A stretch of 64,000 bases of DNA from assembly GCA_963675495.1 (NCBI GenBank), contig OY776215.1, positions 1,856,001 to 1,920,000 of the forward strand, written 5' to 3'. The notes beneath the pieces were generated by a model, which worked only from the letters and a program-made list of their open reading frames with translations, did no database searches and had not been told where the DNA came from. A program made the translations under genes and the position numbers. This document shows positions 52,022 through 59,183 of the stretch, one piece after another (position 1 is the first letter of the stretch; each line of letters opens with the position of its first letter). The stretch is from an uncultured Methanolobus sp. GTDB lineage: Archaea; Halobacteriota; Methanosarcinia; Methanosarcinales; Methanosarcinaceae.

Positions 52022-53215
52022 ATGGTAGCAAGATCAAGGAAAATAGCAGTTCAGGACGATAATTCAGAACAAGTTGACAAACATACAGAAGAAAAAGGTA
52101 TACTTCTTTTTGAAACCACAGGCAAAGAGAAAGTATACAGGTATAAAGATTCTATCTTGTTAAGTTTGCCTGAGGGGAGAAATACACTTACAACTTCATG
52201 GTTGAACGGTGGTTACAGGGAAGACATGAGGACAATTTTCAATCATATGGTTCCAAAAAGTAAGCATGCTCCAAAGGATCTTGATGGTGGCAACATTCCT
52301 GCTTACCTGACCATTATTGCAAAAAGGCTGGGTGCAGATCCTGATACATCTTCAGGGCTGTTGACAGCTGCTAATATGGATAATGTTTCAATCGTGACCA
52401 AATCTTTCCGTGGTGTAGAGGTAACTGCTGTCATGACTGCGGGTATTGAGGTTAATGGGGGGCGTGTAGGTGACCCAGCATCTTATTATCAGGAAGATGG
52501 TTCTCATCAGTTCATTCAGGGAACTATTAACACTATGTTGGTAATAGGGGCCAACCTTCCACCATATGCTATGACAAGAGCTGTGGTTACTGCCTCTGAA
52601 GCAAAGACTGCCGCCTTGCAGCAGTTGATGGCACCCAGTCGCTATTCTACTGGAATTGCCACAGGTTCAGGAACAGATATGATAGCTGTTGTCGCAGACT
52701 CTACAAGTTCTCTTTTGTTGACAGATGCAGGTCAGCATTCCAAGCTTGGTGAGCTTATAGGGAAAGTTGTGATCGAATGCACGCTTAAAGCACTTGAGAT
52801 GCAGTCGGATCTGACCCCACTTTCCCAGAGAGATATACTCGTGAGGCTTGAACGTTTTGGAATAGAAGAGACTAGGTACTGGAAAGTTGCATCACATATG
52901 AATGGGGATAATCGCAAAGCGGTTTTTTTAAAAAAATTGCGGGAAATGTCAAAGGATCCTGTACTAGTAGGGGCAACAGGTTCAATATTGCATATTGTAG
53001 ATGAGATATCATGGGGTCTTGTTCCTGAAACTGCTGGCAGGAAGGTAGCTGTTTCTATTATGAAAGGATTGCCTGAAATGCTTGATATAGATGTTCCCAT
53101 TCCTTTTGATGAACTGACTGACGAAAAAGATACAATAATTGACAATTGGATCCGTGTTACTGCCTGGTTGGCGAAAAATTGTGATCCCGAAGATATTTGT
53201 AATTCCAGAAAATGA
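52022..53215 (+). CDS. cbiZ: Adenosylcobinamide amidohydrolase (with C-terminal extension)
   Basis: TSWLNGG, GLLTAANM, TAGIEVNG, GTIN, TASEAKTAAL, ATGSGTD, GQHSKLGELIG. Confidence 0.9.
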   Translation: MVARSRKIAVQDDNSEQVDKHTEEKGILLFETTGKEKVYRYKDSILLSLPEGRNTLTTSWLNGGYREDMRTIFNHMVPKSKHAPKDLDGGNIPAYLTIIAKRLGADPDTSSGLLTAANMDNVSIVTKSFRGVEVTAVMTAGIEVNGGRVGDPASYYQEDGSHQFIQGTINTMLVIGANLPPYAMTRAVVTASEAKTAALQQLMAPSRYSTGIATGSGTDMIAVVADSTSSLLLTDAGQHSKLGELIGKVVIECTLKALEMQSDLTPLSQRDILVRLERFGIEETRYWKVASHMNGDNRKAVFLKKLREMSKDPVLVGATGSILHIVDEISWGLVPETAGRKVAVSIMKGLPEMLDIDVPIPFDELTDEKDTIIDNWIRVTAWLAKNCDPEDICNSRK

Positions 53216-53232
53216 ATCCTCAGGGTGAGTAA

Positions 53233-54213
53233 ATGAAAGAACTGATGAATTTTTCTCTTTGTGATCATGACATGAAGATGTTCGATTCTAACTGGGGCAT
53301 GATAAGGAATTTCCTTGTCAGACATGACCTGGATGGTCTGGAACTCTTTGTGGATTCGTCTCCGCTTCCAGATGTGCCCGTTGATCTTATAGTGGGTGTA
53401 CATCTTCCTTATTGGATGGGGCGACATAGAGCCTGGGCTGATCCTTCTGCTTTTTCACAGGAAATGGAGGAGTTTGAGATGGCTTACGTTTTTGGTGGTA
53501 ACAGCCGCGAGGAAGTTATTGATAATTTCAGGGGGTCACTTGAGAATGCTGCACATCTGGATGCTTCGTATGCAGTGTTCCATGTTTCTTATGCCGAACT
53601 GGAACAGGTCTTTACACGTTGCTTTGATTGTACCGACCATGATGTGCTTGCAACAACTGCTGAATTCCTGAATGAGGCTGTCTCAATTTATCAGAATGGT
53701 GAACCACCGGTCAGGATATTCTTTGAGAATCTCTGGTGGCCAGGTCTTACATTCCTTGATTCCAAAAATGTTGAATATTTTACAGACCTTCTTGATTTCG
53801 AGAATTGGGCTTTCGTGCTGGATACCGGCCATCTTATGAATGCTACTATGAAGTGTGAAGATGAGGAATGCTCAATAGATGTTGTATTGGATCTACTTTC
53901 CACTCATTCTGAGGATTTTATCAAGCGAATTGAAGGCATGCATTTCCACTGCAGTTTATCAGGTGAGTTCATGCGTAACTCCATGGGAAACGAGGTTCCC
54001 AAGGGATTTGAAAATATGCATTTCAATGACCGTCTTTTATCGGTTATGGAGGTTCTTGAGCAGATGGACCATCATATGCCTTTTACCAGTGAGAAATGTT
54101 CTAAGATAGTTGACTTGGTATCTCCTGATTTTCTGACCCACGAATTTGTTTCAACTGATTTACAATCTCTCGATATGAAAATAGCTACACAGAAACGAGC
54201 ATTGTATGGGTGA
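53233..54213 (+). CDS. Xylose isomerase-like TIM-barrel protein
   Basis: DGLEL, GVHL, YAVFHV, FENLWWPG, LDTGHLMN, DHH.PF, THE metal ligands. Confidence 0.82.
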   Translation: MKELMNFSLCDHDMKMFDSNWGMIRNFLVRHDLDGLELFVDSSPLPDVPVDLIVGVHLPYWMGRHRAWADPSAFSQEMEEFEMAYVFGGNSREEVIDNFRGSLENAAHLDASYAVFHVSYAELEQVFTRCFDCTDHDVLATTAEFLNEAVSIYQNGEPPVRIFFENLWWPGLTFLDSKNVEYFTDLLDFENWAFVLDTGHLMNATMKCEDEECSIDVVLDLLSTHSEDFIKRIEGMHFHCSLSGEFMRNSMGNEVPKGFENMHFNDRLLSVMEVLEQMDHHMPFTSEKCSKIVDLVSPDFLTHEFVSTDLQSLDMKIATQKRALYG

Positions 54214-54303: not shown

Positions 54304-54345
54304 ATGTGGAAAAGTATATATTCAACTCGACATGTACTCTTAATT

Positions 54346-54900
54346 ATGAGTACTCTCGATAACAATGATTCCGAGAATCCAGAAAATATGGACCGATTGA
54401 AACTTTTTAGTGCACTTGGAAGTGAAACCAGACTAAGAATGTTACAACAGCTTACTGAGGGTGAAATGCATATATCTGAACTTGCAAGGATGCTAAGTAT
54501 TTCTGTTCCGGTTGCTGCAAAGCATGCAAATATACTTGAAGCCGCTGACCTCATACAGCGTAAGGTGTATGGTAAAACCCATGTTTTACAATTGAATAAT
54601 AAGAACATTTTCCATGCATTGGATATATTTGCACCTTCCAGAACGGTTGAAGTGGAAAAGGGCGCAACACTTCTGCAAGCACTTAAAAAGGCTGCAGTAG
54701 TGGAAGTGAAGAACGTTCACGGACAGGATAACATTGTTTCCACAAATGGTGAAGAAGGTTTCTTTATATATGAGGTGGATGGTGAATTCTCTGAACAGAA
54801 TGTCAATGACTATAAATTTGACAAAGAAGGAACAGTCATGTGGAAGAAGCTGGAACCAATAAGCATCTTAAAGGTGAATGTCAAATTCAAAAAGGAATGA
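54346..54900 (+). CDS. ArsR-family HTH regulator with C-terminal DUF4430/transcobalamin-like domain
   Basis: LFSALGSETRLRML..MHISELARML..VAAKHANILEAADLI; C-terminal GATLLQAL...IVSTNG..GFFIYEVDGE..VNDY..V.W. Confidence 0.8.
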   Translation: MSTLDNNDSENPENMDRLKLFSALGSETRLRMLQQLTEGEMHISELARMLSISVPVAAKHANILEAADLIQRKVYGKTHVLQLNNKNIFHALDIFAPSRTVEVEKGATLLQALKKAAVVEVKNVHGQDNIVSTNGEEGFFIYEVDGEFSEQNVNDYKFDKEGTVMWKKLEPISILKVNVKFKKE

Positions 54901-55084: not shown

Positions 55085-56227
55085 ATGATTCCCAGAAATC
55101 CTGTTAATGAGCACCATATGACGCTTATGGAAAGGATGAGACTGCTGTCTGAAGGTACCAAATATGATAGTTGCAACCAGAGTGCAGTCTGCCATGCTTT
55201 CGGACCCGATGGTCGTTGCATACAACTCTACAAGACTTTGATGACAAATTCATGTTCAGGGGAGTGCACATATTGTCCGAACAGGTGTGGCAGGGATTCT
55301 GTGCGTGCATCATTAAGCCCGGAAGAAATCGTAAAGATCACATGGTCTTTCTACCGAAGAAATGCAATAGAAGGCCTGTTCCTGTCCTCTGGTGTGATAG
55401 GGGATTCCGAAAGGACGGCAGAGAAGCAATTAGATGTTGCAAGACTTCTGAGAGGGCAGGGATTTACCGGTTATATCCATATTCGAGTAATGCCAGGTAC
55501 TCCAAAATATTTGCTTGAGGAAATTGCTGATTATGCAAATAAGTTCGGCGTGAATGCAGAAACTACAAACTCACTTAATTATTCGGAAATATGCCCGAAT
55601 TTTGATTATCAAAATGATGTACTCCAGCGTTTACAATGGACACGGGATCTTATTAATAAAAAAAGACGAGAGCCAGGTTCCAGGAGTCGGATAATTGGTG
55701 CCAATGATACTCAGTTTGTGGTTGGAGCCCTGCAGGAATCTGACAGGGAGATAATCGGAACTGTTGAGAAGTTCATGGACAGATACGAATTGAGAAGGCC
55801 TTACTTTATGAGCTTCGACCCGGTTCCATTCACTCCTCTTGAAAACAATGAGCCTTCTCCCCAGTGGAGAGAAGCAAGATTATATCAGACTTCCTATCTT
55901 TTGAAGGACTATGGTATGAGTGCCAATGACCTGGATTCTGTTCTTGACGATAATGGCTTTCTTTGCGATACAGATCCTAAAATGCTCCTTGCATCGTGTC
56001 GTCCTGATATGTTTCCAGTGGACGTAAATTCTGCAAGCAGGAACGAATTGCTCACTGTGCCTGGGATTGGTCCTGTGGGGGCCAACAGGATAATTCAGTC
56101 AAGGCCTATAGCATCGGAAAAGGAACTTGCGCGCATGGGTGTTGTTCTTGGTCGTGCACGTCCGTTCATTGAAATAAACGGGAAAAAACAGACAAACTTA
56201 TTCTCGTTTACGGGGGTGGGTGCATGA
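55085..56227 (+). CDS. Putative DNA modification/repair radical SAM protein with HhH (TIGR03916-like)
   Basis: TKYD..C, CHAFGPDGRC, CxxxCxxC (CSGECTYC), IEGLFLSSGV, GYIH, REARLYQ, FPVDVN.AS..ELL.VPGIG. Confidence 0.9.
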   Translation: MIPRNPVNEHHMTLMERMRLLSEGTKYDSCNQSAVCHAFGPDGRCIQLYKTLMTNSCSGECTYCPNRCGRDSVRASLSPEEIVKITWSFYRRNAIEGLFLSSGVIGDSERTAEKQLDVARLLRGQGFTGYIHIRVMPGTPKYLLEEIADYANKFGVNAETTNSLNYSEICPNFDYQNDVLQRLQWTRDLINKKRREPGSRSRIIGANDTQFVVGALQESDREIIGTVEKFMDRYELRRPYFMSFDPVPFTPLENNEPSPQWREARLYQTSYLLKDYGMSANDLDSVLDDNGFLCDTDPKMLLASCRPDMFPVDVNSASRNELLTVPGIGPVGANRIIQSRPIASEKELARMGVVLGRARPFIEINGKKQTNLFSFTGVGA

Positions 56228-57069
56228 TAGTGGCCTTCAGGGAAAATGTAGAAGGTGTTTTGCTTGCCTGTGATGCGCTCTTAGGTAATCCGGATTGTGA
56301 TCTCATTTCCGCAAAGGACAGAGATGGGCTGAAACAAAAGATGGAGTTTACAGGAGTTGATGAAGTGAAAACTCTGGGATTCAGATGTATGGTAGATACA
56401 ACAAAGCTTGTATGCAACATATTTGGAAAACGGGGTTCAAGAATGTTTCAGCGTGATCCGGATGTTGAAGGGTACATAGCAATGGTATTGAGACATCGAA
56501 GCTCGCGACCGATCGAACTGGTACATTTTCTGTGTTCTTGTGAGGGGAATGCCGAACTTCTTTATTCAGGTAAGAGCAGCACGGGTAAAAAATATTACAA
56601 TTACATGCGGGATGTAAGTCGTTCATATCATCGTTTGTGCATGTTTGCACGGCCTGCTTTTGTTAATGGGGTGTTGTCTGTCAAAATAGAGTCATCACAT
56701 CAGATAGGAGATCTCTTCTGTCGCTGGCTTTCAAGGAAAAACCCCGACCTTCCTGTTTCGGTAATAGAGGGGGACATTGCCTGGATAGGAAATGGCGCTC
56801 ATGTAGGCCTTGAACACTTCACAAAGGTGCCTTCTTCATTGGCAGGTAGCCTTGAGTTTACCAATGAACGTGATGAGGTTGATGATCTGTGGGATATGTA
56901 CTACGATTCTCAGATGATTCACAACCGGAGAAATAAAAGCCATGCCAAGCAGCTGCAACCAAAGGCTTCTGCATCCATGAGCAAGATGTCGGAAAGGGAC
57001 CGGTACAAGGTTGAAAAAGGTATTGCGAACTGCACCCTGGATTCTTTTGCGTCTGAGTTGGAGGTATAA
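56224..57069 (+). CDS. DUF4130 / TIGR03915-like DNA metabolism protein
   Basis: DVSRSYHRLCMFAR, IESSHQI, DDLWDMYYDSQMIHNRRN; ATGA overlap with the radical SAM gene. Confidence 0.8.
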   Translation: MIVAFRENVEGVLLACDALLGNPDCDLISAKDRDGLKQKMEFTGVDEVKTLGFRCMVDTTKLVCNIFGKRGSRMFQRDPDVEGYIAMVLRHRSSRPIELVHFLCSCEGNAELLYSGKSSTGKKYYNYMRDVSRSYHRLCMFARPAFVNGVLSVKIESSHQIGDLFCRWLSRKNPDLPVSVIEGDIAWIGNGAHVGLEHFTKVPSSLAGSLEFTNERDEVDDLWDMYYDSQMIHNRRNKSHAKQLQPKASASMSKMSERDRYKVEKGIANCTLDSFASELEV

Positions 57070-59183
57070 TGTTAGCTGATGTCAGGACTTTACAGGATAT
57101 TCCTCGCATAGGGGACAAAATGTCGAAACGTTTTGTAGAGCATTTCGGTAGTGAAAATCAGGCACTTGACGTTATACTTGCCGGTGATATCGCCAGTATT
57201 TCCGAGGTAGAGGGTATTGGTCAACGTTATGCGATCTCTCTTATACAGGATGTAGCTTCCAGAGTTGAAGGAGTTAATGTCTCTGATTTTTTGAGAACCA
57301 AGGAGGCAATGGATGTCTATGAAAAATTGCTTGACCTAGTAAAGGAATTTGCTCATACCCGATATTCCAAAGATAAACTACATGTTTTTTTCCCGTATCC
57401 TTCTAGCAAGATCCAAAAGATAATGCAGGTCCGTGAATCAGTTTCGTATTACATGGAAACTGCCAATCTGCTTGAGGGGGATGGGACTATTGTTGACTTG
57501 TTGTCAAAAGCCACACAGTTAAATTTTAAACACCAGTGCCCCAAGATTCGCGACAGGGTTATCATAACATCTGACCATGATAGTTACGAGTATGCAAGAA
57601 AACGGTTTGCAGGATTGGTTGATGTAAACTTTGCACGTTCCCTTTCTGAATTCATAGATGTTTCAAGGGGTTTCTCTCAGGTTATTGCTGTGGGAGATGA
57701 TTACCTGTCATTTGATCTTCCAGAAGATGTGGACCCTGAATTCTATTCTGACTTACAGGAAATAGATGATTTCAAGGTTATACCTGAAAAAGAAATAGTG
57801 GCATTTTCCCGCAATCTCAAATCGATAGAATCTTCTATTAAAGTGATAAGGTTGCTCCGTTCCAGGGGAATTAGTTTCTTTGACAGCATGGATGATGATA
57901 AACTTGAGTTGCTTGCTTCTACATTGGCTCTTATAGACGAGAGTGGTGATATTGTCTATGGGACTGATGAGGAAGTGGACCGAATTTCGGATGCAAAAGA
58001 CAAGCTTAGTTCTACTGTTACAGAAACTGTACGTATTGTAAATGATGGTCTGAACTCCTGTCTGGAAAATAGTCAGATGACACTCAGTGGACAGGATATG
58101 CTGAAAGTGATGAATGGTTCCATTGAGCTGAAAGAGATACTTGGAAAGAAGCTGCACAAAAGTTATTACTCCATTGTTAAAGAAGGTGCGGACAGAATAT
58201 GCAATGAACTTCAGCTTGAGAAAAAGGAAAGATTGATGGTCGATTCCTTTTTCCCGGAAGAGATTATGCATCCTGTGGAAGCAAATGTTGATAATCTTAA
58301 TGCTTTGAAACAGCACCTGAATAAAAAGGCCCTGAAAAGAAAATTCGATCATAAGCGTGAAGTCTCACGCATATTGTCTTCCTACAAAACAATTGTTCGG
58401 GAAATGGTTCGCGAAGTACTTGATTTTGATGTGGGATTTGCAATCGGTTCTTTTGCTCTTGCATATGATCTTGTTATGCCTACAATTATAGATGGTACAG
58501 GCATTGGTTTTAATGGTGGAAGGAACCTGTTTTTGCTTTCCAGACATGGTGATGTGGTACCAATTGACTATTCAGTGGGTGAGAACGGTTTCAGTCCTAA
58601 AAGTGAGGCCAGCAGGGTCGTACTTTTGAGTGGCGTCAATTCAGGAGGTAAAACCTCCCTTCTGGAACTTCTTGCCCAGAGCAGTATCCTTGCCCAGATG
58701 GGATTTCCTGTTCCTGCACAGCATATGGAACTATCTCTTACTGAGTCGATGTACTACTTTGCTAAATCAAAAGGTACATTAGATGCAGGTGCATTTGAAA
58801 CGACCCTTACTGAGTTCTCTGTGGTAGCTGATGATTCTGCAAAATTTGTATTGGCAGATGAGCTTGAATCCATCACAGAGCCTGGAGCTTCTGCAAAGAT
58901 CATGGCTGGAATACTTGAAGTTTTAACCGAGAATGAAAGCACTATGTCTATATTTGTGTCACATCTTTCAGAGCAGATAGTGGAGAATACTACCTGTGAT
59001 ATCAGGGTTGATGGGATAGAGGCAAGCGGGCTGGATGCCGAGCTTAATTTAATAGTTGACAGGAGTCCCCGTTATAATTATGTTGCAAAAAGCACCCCTG
59101 AACTGATTGTAGAGAGGCTATCAAAAAAGACAGGCGGAAAAGAACAGGCTTTCTATGATAAATTAAGGAGTAAGTTTCAGTAG
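57069..59183 (+). CDS. mutS5: Archaeal MutS5 (MutS2-like) ATPase with N-terminal HhH
   Basis: HhH LQDIPRIG / SEVEGIG; SGVNSGGKT; GTLDAGAFETTL; LADELESITEPGA; FVSHL; no mismatch-binding or Smr domain; TAATG overlap with the DUF4130 gene. Confidence 0.88.
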   Translation: MLADVRTLQDIPRIGDKMSKRFVEHFGSENQALDVILAGDIASISEVEGIGQRYAISLIQDVASRVEGVNVSDFLRTKEAMDVYEKLLDLVKEFAHTRYSKDKLHVFFPYPSSKIQKIMQVRESVSYYMETANLLEGDGTIVDLLSKATQLNFKHQCPKIRDRVIITSDHDSYEYARKRFAGLVDVNFARSLSEFIDVSRGFSQVIAVGDDYLSFDLPEDVDPEFYSDLQEIDDFKVIPEKEIVAFSRNLKSIESSIKVIRLLRSRGISFFDSMDDDKLELLASTLALIDESGDIVYGTDEEVDRISDAKDKLSSTVTETVRIVNDGLNSCLENSQMTLSGQDMLKVMNGSIELKEILGKKLHKSYYSIVKEGADRICNELQLEKKERLMVDSFFPEEIMHPVEANVDNLNALKQHLNKKALKRKFDHKREVSRILSSYKTIVREMVREVLDFDVGFAIGSFALAYDLVMPTIIDGTGIGFNGGRNLFLLSRHGDVVPIDYSVGENGFSPKSEASRVVLLSGVNSGGKTSLLELLAQSSILAQMGFPVPAQHMELSLTESMYYFAKSKGTLDAGAFETTLTEFSVVADDSAKFVLADELESITEPGASAKIMAGILEVLTENESTMSIFVSHLSEQIVENTTCDIRVDGIEASGLDAELNLIVDRSPRYNYVAKSTPELIVERLSKKTGGKEQAFYDKLRSKFQ

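Follow-up and report, generated by a model that had tools for sequence, protein, structure and literature searches.

Putative PCNA-docking tails on both members of an archaeal radical SAM/DUF4130 gene pair

A 64,000-nucleotide stretch of DNA from an uncultured Methanolobus sp. (GenBank contig OY776215.1, positions 1,856,001 to 1,920,000 of the forward strand; termed here the window, whose coordinates are used below unless another region is named) encodes a radical SAM protein with a helix-hairpin-helix (HhH) domain and, overlapping it, a DUF4130 protein, both of which end in short peptides resembling the PCNA-interacting peptide (PIP) motif. The analysis described here suggests, with a probability of roughly 0.7, that both of these archaeal subunits carry flexible C-terminal peptides that dock into the PIP pocket of PCNA and that the pair acts on clamp-loaded DNA. 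The evidence comprises the motifs themselves, their conservation, their rarity within the genome, their match to the tails of the organism's own PCNA clients, and a type of motif that follows the domain of life.

The same two families occur, in the same order, within the bacterial COG1573-COG4277 operon (which encodes a TIGR03914 uracil-DNA glycosylase (UDG)-family domain, a TIGR03915 DUF4130 protein and a TIGR03916 radical SAM protein), the nearest system so far described. In the accessible part of PMC8565304, this operon is presented as a putative base-excision system that is under SOS regulation in Bacteroidetes; in the accessible part of PMC3765255, DUF4130 is predicted to be related to mutagenesis and is linked to radical SAM enzymes and UDGs. 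The COG4277/DUF4130 pair occurs widely, being found in 129/401 genomes of the phylum and in many bacteria, among which it is SOS-regulated in the Bacteroidetes, as just cited. That the type of clamp peptide follows the domain of life constitutes strong circumstantial evidence for an enzyme that works on clamp-loaded DNA; with clamp-loaded DNA as its workplace, the search for its substrate would therefore narrow to those lesions or bases that are encountered at replication forks and at repair patches. The finding would thus extend the known PCNA clients by a radical SAM enzyme and give a damage-linked enzyme a place of action.

Judging from their sequences, the radical SAM/DUF4130 pair would constitute a new family of PCNA client. 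No published mention of a clamp motif on this pair was found in a search that left subscription journals and bioRxiv supplements outside its scope: the word 'clamp' is absent from the accessible part of PMC8565304, and no clamp motif is mentioned around DUF4130 in the accessible parts of PMC3765255 or of the preprint 10.64898/2026.08.19.745780. A further parallel is the archaeal NreB/SplB-like pair, in which, according to the accessible part of PMC4929162, a radical SAM enzyme of DNA-repair type has a PCNA-binding partner. In that pair, however, the radical SAM protein is SplB-like (COG1533) and the PIP motif is on Nre, whereas here the radical SAM protein belongs to COG4277 and tails occur on both subunits.

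The gene pair and its C-terminal motifs

The first gene (55085..56227, + strand; stop codon TGA at 56225-56227) encodes the COG4277 / TIGR03916-like radical SAM/HhH protein, whose start is ambiguous: translation may begin at TTG 55022 (401 aa), at ATG 55085 (380 aa) or at ATG 55118 (369 aa). The 380-aa form has the length of most database homologues; the 369-aa form served as the query in searches, and residue numbering follows it here. TIGR03916 is by far the best-matching family, with model positions 32-382 of 415 covered at a score (286.5 bits) that lies below the cut-off (343.5 bits); among Pfam families, the protein matches Radical_SAM (PF04055, 32.5 bits) and, just below the cut-off of 27, HHH_3 (26.7 bits). 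It has a Cx3Cx2C cluster motif, whose cysteines (C46, C50 and C53) are invariant across the alignment of the radical SAM proteins (alignment A1), a C-terminal HhH domain and an adjoining DUF4130 gene. This second gene (56224..57069, + strand), whose start codon, ATG, shares bases with the stop of the radical SAM gene (ATGA), encodes a TIGR03915-like protein that passes the cut-off of PF13566 (36.1 bits, cut-off 27) and misses that of TIGR03915 (29 bits, cut-off 112). Unlike the products of the bacterial operon, therefore, the archaeal proteins fall under both NCBIfam cut-offs.

The radical SAM/HhH protein ends in ...KKQTNLFSFTGVGA (the + strand open reading frame (ORF) that ends at 56227 has the translated C-terminus ...INGKKQTNLFSFTGVGA), within which the canonical PIP-type motif QTNLFSF, with Q at position 1, L at position 4 and F at position 7, is encoded at 56189..56209 (+) and is followed by five poorly conserved residues, TGVGA. 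The DUF4130 protein ends in ...NCTLDSFASELEV (the + strand ORF 56224-57069 has the translated C-terminus ...KGIANCTLDSFASELEV), within which the Q-less PIP-like motif NCTLDSF is encoded at 57028..57048 (+) and is followed by six variable residues; this motif sits on a 34-residue extension past the end of the Pfam domain (residue 247 of 281). An earlier note on this DNA had located both tails, and the ORF translations reproduce them exactly. Its description of both as PIP-like applies to the radical SAM tail, which is canonical, and applies in part to the DUF4130 tail, which lacks the Q and has the conserved L and aromatic residue.

Archaeal PCNA clients (such as Fen1, PolB, PolD DP2, the RFC large subunit, Y-family polymerase, NreA and NucS) have in common a flexible C-terminus that carries a short peptide of the form Qxx[LIM]xx[FWY]. 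Within the genome examined here, clients end in QSTLDKWF, QSSLFDF, QTGLMEFM, QKTLFDF, QTFLSDFL and QRTLDSFF, and QTNLFSF, the tail of the radical SAM protein, is in keeping with these. What distinguishes the present case from these known clients is that the carrier is a radical SAM enzyme together with a DUF4130 partner, and that the motif of the second subunit is Q-less.

The background frequency of such tails was obtained from a crude, non-overlapping set of 2382 ORFs of at least 100 aa from the organism's own genome, of which 26 (the radical SAM protein included) have Qxx[LIM]xx[FWY] within their last 15 residues. Pfam and NCBIfam scans identify at least ten of the other 25 as replication or repair enzymes: among the 25 are two Fen1/XPG proteins, PolD DP2, PolB, two Y-family polymerases, the RFC large subunit (753.9 bits), NreA (which ends QRTLDSFF), an Mre11-like protein (407 bits, under its cut-off) and a TIGR00375 protein (351.7 bits), which we take to be of the EndoQ family (reported to be a PCNA client). 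Also present are an anti-phage PLD/SNF2 helicase, its DUF3780 neighbour and a DUF488 protein, and 12 of the 25 have no DNA link or no family. A C-terminal Qxx[LIM]xx[FWY] is thus, on sequence grounds, a good predictor of a clamp client in this organism. A log-odds matrix built from eight replication/repair tails of the same genome ranks the radical SAM tail 11th among the 2382 ORFs and the DUF4130 tail 24th, or 13th when the Q column is left out. The tight pattern [ST]L[DE]x[FWY] occurs in 7/2382 ORFs, Fen1 and NreA among them, and the bacterial-type pattern Q[LMF]x[LM][FLW] in the tails of 3/2382.

RNase HII is a textbook example of an archaeal protein whose C-terminus bears a PIP motif, and the earlier note had invoked it as such. 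The example fails in this genome, whose RNase HII (region G000:C1:82699-83316; L199:1474-2172, - strand) ends in ...VENLMKEEK and has no C-terminal PIP-like motif; RNase HII was consequently dropped as an expected carrier.

Conservation of the tails and their bacterial counterparts

The radical SAM gene is present in all of the other Methanolobus genomes searched (24/24). Among the 24 complete tails (23 from other genomes and the window's own, one further locus being cut short), the Q, the L and the final F of the motif are invariant, and variation is confined to the residue between and to those that follow the motif; position 8, for instance, is T in the window and A or M in congeners. The canonical pattern is found within the last 15 residues of 90 of the 120 best database clusters, and of 85 of the 87 closest, which include Methanohalophilus, Methanosalsum and Methanocella-type names. 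Four of the 120 have the strict β-clamp pattern and 26 have other ends, of which five are DTTLE[RM]W-like and six are QLSW-type motifs.

At the level of the phylum, a TIGR03916 search of 401 genomes yielded matches in 129 at E <= 1e-30, and in 0/401 genomes was there a match above the curated cut-off. Among control genomes, TIGR03916 was found in Caulobacter vibrioides and Bacteroides thetaiotaomicron; at the threshold applied, the archaeal controls Haloferax volcanii, Methanosarcina acetivorans, Methanocaldococcus jannaschii and Sulfolobus acidocaldarius gave no match. Loci were then picked to span about 14 family codes (56 loci, from which one masked tail was removed), and the canonical radical SAM tail is present in 41 of the 55 resulting tails. 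Six others are Q-less or shortened (e.g., ATLDRW, DTTLEMW, or QKRLF at the very end), and the remaining eight consist of QTKLFP (three), QTTFASW (two), QSRLSEF plus 10 residues, QKTLADE, and QGQLG at the very end. Many families of the phylum have no DUF4130 gene within about 1.7 kb (as judged by a custom profile) and still keep the radical SAM tail, which is therefore not a DUF4130-binding element. Among named archaeal genomes, 6/8 radical SAM homologues have [QD]xx[LIM]xx[FWY], including those from Woesearchaeota (QASLKKWF), Methanobacteriaceae and Methanomassiliicoccales.

Two groups of homologues stand apart in the form of their tails. Stand-alone radical SAM/HhH homologues with family code f8 (L169-L171) have IQTKLFP or IQTKLIL at the very end, and those with family code f20 (L187 and L189) end in QTTFASW[CY]; such odd variants depart from the canonical PIP and may mark either a different partner or a decayed motif. 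As regards the distribution of the gene pair, the phylum survey finds it in 33/52 genomes of the window's own family and in 0/13 and 0/4 genomes of two genera of that family having 3-4 Mb genomes (g14 and g17); even close relatives thus differ in whether they have it.

The DUF4130 tail is conserved in a similar manner: TLDxF is invariant in 24/24 genus tails and the residues after it are variable. A word-based search gave 70 DUF4130 clusters (from Methanolobus, Methanococcoides and Methanomethylovorans), all of which carry [LIM]xx[FWY] within 15 residues of the C-terminus, 68 of them within 12; the Methanomethylovorans-type proteins end KLGDFF. An exhaustive HMMER search of cluster representatives gave 37 matches, 34 of them new, and 26 of these 34 carry the tail pattern, the other eight being four N-terminal fragments, one protein with an internal motif and three that end without the extension. 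An alignment of 32 divergent sequences (alignment A2, 18-80% identity) has just ten columns that are invariant or nearly so, and L272 is among them. Of the complete phylum DUF4130 tails, 21/23 carry [LIM]xx[FWY] within their final 12 residues; the other two, which look truncated, have scores about half as high. Wherever a named archaeal locus has a downstream ORF, that ORF is a DUF4130 protein (6/6), and these six proteins end in KLEDFG, RSLLEF, RTLDEYIPSD, KKLDEF, ATLEDFLGEG and TTLDSFL; two Methanobacteriales-type loci have no DUF4130 neighbour downstream. The earlier note had named a lack of conservation among archaeal homologues as grounds for abandoning its proposal; both tails are instead kept within the genus, the phylum and other named archaea.

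The extension that bears the DUF4130 motif was compared with bacterial proteins by Pfam scans of 21 of the roughly 75 ORFs downstream of the named-genome loci. In 9/11 bacterial stand-alone proteins the DUF4130 domain stops no more than 7 residues from the C-terminus, and archaeal proteins run past the domain by 16-31 residues in the six named cases and by 34 in the window protein; in other words, an extension is present in every archaeal DUF4130 homologue examined and in few bacterial ones. The four long bacterial DUF4130 proteins tested are all DUF4130-UDG fusions (4/4), in contrast to the archaeal ones tested, which have no UDG fusion. No clamp motif was seen at the C-termini of the bacterial DUF4130 proteins inspected. 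On this comparison, the tail is an addition shared by the archaeal forms, rather than a swap; relative to the bacterial operon, the archaeal DUF4130 protein has gained a tail of its own. In the window, this tail shares its core, TLDSF, with the consensus PIP peptide KTTQSTLDSFFK, which, according to the accessible part of PMC4929162, was co-crystallised with A. fulgidus PCNA.

The radical SAM tail, by comparison, has a counterpart in bacteria. A scan of named genomes gave 80 loci, 8 archaeal and 72 bacterial (71 of the latter being complete and one cut by a contig end). The pattern Q[LMF]x[LM][FLW] occurs in the last 35 residues of 64/71 bacterial TIGR03916-type proteins, in forms such as QLSLF, QLELF, QMSLL and QMGLW, most of them 0-2 residues from the end; the seven misses are near variants (QRDLF, QPSLF, QQSLF, QTEMF, EVDLF, QLSLPF and QLGFGF). 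It occurs near the C-terminus in 0/8 named archaeal homologues, and is not found in the window protein. These counts bear out the earlier note's statement that many bacterial TIGR03916 proteins end in a QLxLF-like β-clamp motif. The two types also differ in their setting, inasmuch as the alignment places the archaeal PIP-type motif directly after the HhH domain, whereas the bacterial QLSLF-type motif follows a variable linker of 15-35 residues.

An unrooted tree of 80 proteins, from which the tails were removed before alignment, places 30/31 bacterial rows in a single clade (with a Shimodaira-Hasegawa-like approximate likelihood ratio test (SH-aLRT) value of 100) and the archaeal rows in several clades. 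The exception, an Anaerolineales bacterium (L112), lies on a long branch (1.32) among archaeal rows and has a tail containing QMRLL. If real, this placement would represent a second independent motif switch; constraining all 31 bacterial rows together is not rejected (approximately unbiased test, p-AU 0.19). A single ancient swap, in either direction, fits the unrooted tree. The possibility that separate archaeal lineages nested among bacteria had each acquired PIP tails convergently, which would have strengthened the case, was considered and dropped, one swap being sufficient given the tree and the p-AU value. Hence the earlier note's notion of a module 're-wired' to the archaeal clamp stands insofar as the type of motif follows the domain of life; the direction that the word implies does not follow from an unrooted tree, and the DUF4130 tail is better described as an addition.

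Proposed docking on PCNA and competing explanations

In the AlphaFold 2 (AF2) model of the radical SAM protein, whose mean predicted local distance difference test (pLDDT) score is 88.9, the last strand spans residues 351-353 and a helical turn spans residues 361-363 inside the motif, which begins about two residues past the last strand; the block 361-369 has a mean pLDDT of 45, with residues 365-369 below 50. The AF2 model of the DUF4130 protein (mean pLDDT 85.3) has a helix at 254-265, then coil, and then a short helix at 272-276 over LDSFA (block pLDDT 61). Thus both tails are modelled as low-confidence, short-helix ends. As to the folds that bear them, a Foldseek search with the radical SAM model returned only generic radical SAM folds, of which the best was HydE (E 1.4e-9, template modelling (TM) score 0.50), and hence no closer solved relative. 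Residues 1-213 of the DUF4130 protein resemble DHH/RecJ/Cdc45-type folds (Z 11.1-10.4; root-mean-square deviation 3.6-4.6 Å over 194-202 residues), a likeness on which the accessible part of the preprint 10.64898/2026.08.19.745780 agrees.

A predicted complex of PCNA with a tail, a check of the kind that the earlier note had suggested, was obtained for the DUF4130 tail by folding the organism's own PCNA (245 aa, encoded at about G000:C1:2192250-2192987, - strand; alignment A3) with DUF4130 residues 240-281 (alignment A2). The median score is 0.34 (runs of 0.34, 0.25 and 0.40), the best of three controls being 0.01; the runs have at least 39% of contacts in common, and the partner has a pLDDT of 42 or more. 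Of solved complexes, 116/157 reach the mark set for the complex score, as do 2/215 mismatched pairs; at a score of 0.60 or under, it is reached by only 18/157 solved complexes and by both of the passing mismatches. The prediction thus supports docking weakly. Because PCNA-PIP complexes have already been solved, the pass may reflect likeness to them, and it raises the case for the DUF4130 tail only slightly.

Several considerations weigh against the docking of both tails. First, the model of the radical SAM protein leaves almost no linker between fold and motif, so that docking could be hindered or the segment could belong to the fold. The radical SAM motif is also without a second aromatic residue at position 8, which is part of the QXXhXXaa definition given in the accessible part of PMC4929162; the organism's own PolB, RFC large subunit, one Y-family polymerase and one Fen1 stop at position 7, without any position 8. 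Moreover, 14/55 phylum radical SAM tails are non-canonical, some of them being far from PIP (QTKLFP, QTTFASW, and QGQLG at the very end), and the sampled genomes are kin, so that conservation counts overstate independence. The correlation with domain of life is, likewise, effectively a single evolutionary event, because the tree needs only one motif change between bacterial and archaeal rows. Finally, the DUF4130 motif is without the defining Q (position 1 is N in the window and is Q in 0/23 phylum tails), and the loose pattern [LIM]xx[FWY] in the last 12 residues is not rare, occurring in 401/2382 ORFs (16.8%); the case for this tail therefore rests on conservation. The complex prediction, besides being weak, is a score without a reported interface and took custom alignments as input.

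One alternative is that only the radical SAM tail docks on PCNA and that the DUF4130 tail is kept for some other docking, whether on the radical SAM subunit, on the MutS-like ATPase encoded downstream or on another hub. Of the alternatives this is the one that survives best, and we regard it as unlikely. The missing Q, the frequency of the loose pattern and the weakness of the complex prediction all favor it, as does the lack of a clamp motif in the bacterial DUF4130 C-termini inspected; in addition, conservation extends to the stretch preceding the motif (RDRYKVERGI), so that the C-terminal region as a whole may act as a single unit. Yet very divergent homologues, sharing 20-45% identity, retain the L..[FWY] pair of hydrophobic residues along with acidic residues between them, whereas the preceding linker varies in length and sequence. 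Without its Q column, moreover, the PCNA-client matrix still ranks this tail 13/2382; its TLDSF matches the core of the consensus PIP from the crystal structure noted above (PMC4929162, accessible part); the Methanomethylovorans-type motifs and those with family code f15 end in FF, as canonical PIPs do; and in f15 and f7 loci, where the MutS-like neighbour is not seen within 1.5 kb, the DUF4130 tail is kept all the same.

Far less probable is the alternative that neither tail binds PCNA and that both are structural or regulatory (e.g., active-site lids or heterodimer contacts), their likeness to clamp motifs being coincidental. The start of the radical SAM motif two residues past the last strand of the fold is compatible with such a role, as is an AlphaFold 3 (AF3) model, described in the accessible part of bioRxiv 10.64898/2026.08.19.745780, that predicts a confident heterodimer of the bacterial pair with a large subunit interface. 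However, it needs a double coincidence, namely, that the bacterial tails match the β-clamp consensus (64/71, against a background of 3/2382) and that the archaeal tails match the PIP consensus. Nor does it sit well with radical SAM tails that are kept where DUF4130 is not adjacent, with the low model confidence of both tails, or with the strong enrichment of the C-terminal pattern in the genome's replication and repair proteins. As for chance resemblance between tails under no selection, short motifs do arise by chance, as the 16.8% of ORF tails with the loose DUF4130 pattern illustrate, but this reading is scarcely credible, since conservation already speaks against it: throughout the genus, the family, the phylum and other archaeal lineages, the flanks vary and the positions of the motif do not, and two neighbouring genes each rank within the top 1% of the 2382 ORFs by the matrix.

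Docking of both tails on PCNA is thus the explanation preferred here, and from the sequence patterns we infer PCNA binding, a two-site geometry and a replication- or repair-coupled role. Under this explanation, the two overlapping genes would be the archaeal form of the radical SAM/HhH-DUF4130 pair. The radical SAM subunit would dock by means of its canonical PIP, QTNLFSF, and the DUF4130 subunit by means of its Q-less variant, NCTLDSF, borne on the added archaeal extension; the heterodimer would be held on the sliding clamp, possibly across a pair of protomers within the PCNA trimer, and its action would take place where clamps are loaded, that is, at replication forks and repair patches. Bacterial orthologues would reach the same end with a QLSLF-type β-clamp motif on the radical SAM subunit alone.

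A more far-reaching version, which we put forward tentatively and at somewhat less than even odds, is that the pair constitutes, in bacteria and archaea alike, a two-subunit radical enzyme that rides the clamp. Its radical SAM/HhH subunit would be catalytic and its DUF4130 subunit an inactive RecJ/Cdc45-like protein; the archaeal enzyme would grip two PCNA protomers and carry out radical-based DNA repair or modification at the fork or repair patch. If true, this would amount to clamp-coupled radical DNA chemistry of an undescribed kind, and would explain the SOS regulation of the bacterial operon.

Neighbouring genes and further carriers of PIP-like tails

Downstream of the pair lies a gene (57069..59183, + strand) for a 704-aa HhH and MutS-domain-V ATPase, whose ATG overlaps the DUF4130 stop codon TAA by one base. 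The three + strand genes (radical SAM, DUF4130 and MutS-like) thus overlap end to end, and the MutS-like ATPase gene, whose translation is coupled to that of DUF4130, is probably the third gene of an operon. Its product has an N-terminal HhH followed by MutS domain V, and the best NCBIfam matches are to a KamC-type ATPase (86 bits) and to MutS2 (60 bits). The gene lies directly after DUF4130 in five loci of two other genera of the family and in the loci of the genus that were inspected; its product may be a lineage-specific third component. It was considered, and rejected, as a third clamp client, its C-terminus (...KLRSKFQ) being without a PIP-like motif.

Upstream, 120-220 bases from the radical SAM gene, is a gene (54304..54900, + strand) for an HTH protein of ArsR type that also matches DUF4430 weakly. 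Homologues of this protein are encoded upstream in six loci of two other genera of the family, and it is possible that it is a dedicated regulator of the operon. Further upstream, the region 52022-54213 (+ strand) contains genes for CbiZ, an adenosylcobinamide amidohydrolase (198 bits), and for a protein of the xylose-isomerase-like TIM barrel / AP_endonuc_2 type (35 bits).

The background scan of the organism's own genome also brought to light other proteins with PIP-like ends. A DUF488 protein of 149 aa (G000:C1:771506-771955, - strand) ends exactly in QTSLFNF and ranks 10/2382 by the log-odds matrix, one above the radical SAM protein; its tail makes it another candidate clamp client. The anti-phage PLD/SNF2 helicase (NF042964, 1272.8 bits; G000:C1:205627-208335, - strand) ends in QHLLKGW, and its DUF3780 anti-phage-associated neighbour (G000:C1:211969-212604, - strand) ends in QGSLLDF; together, these two would represent a defence system with PIP-like tails on two of its components.

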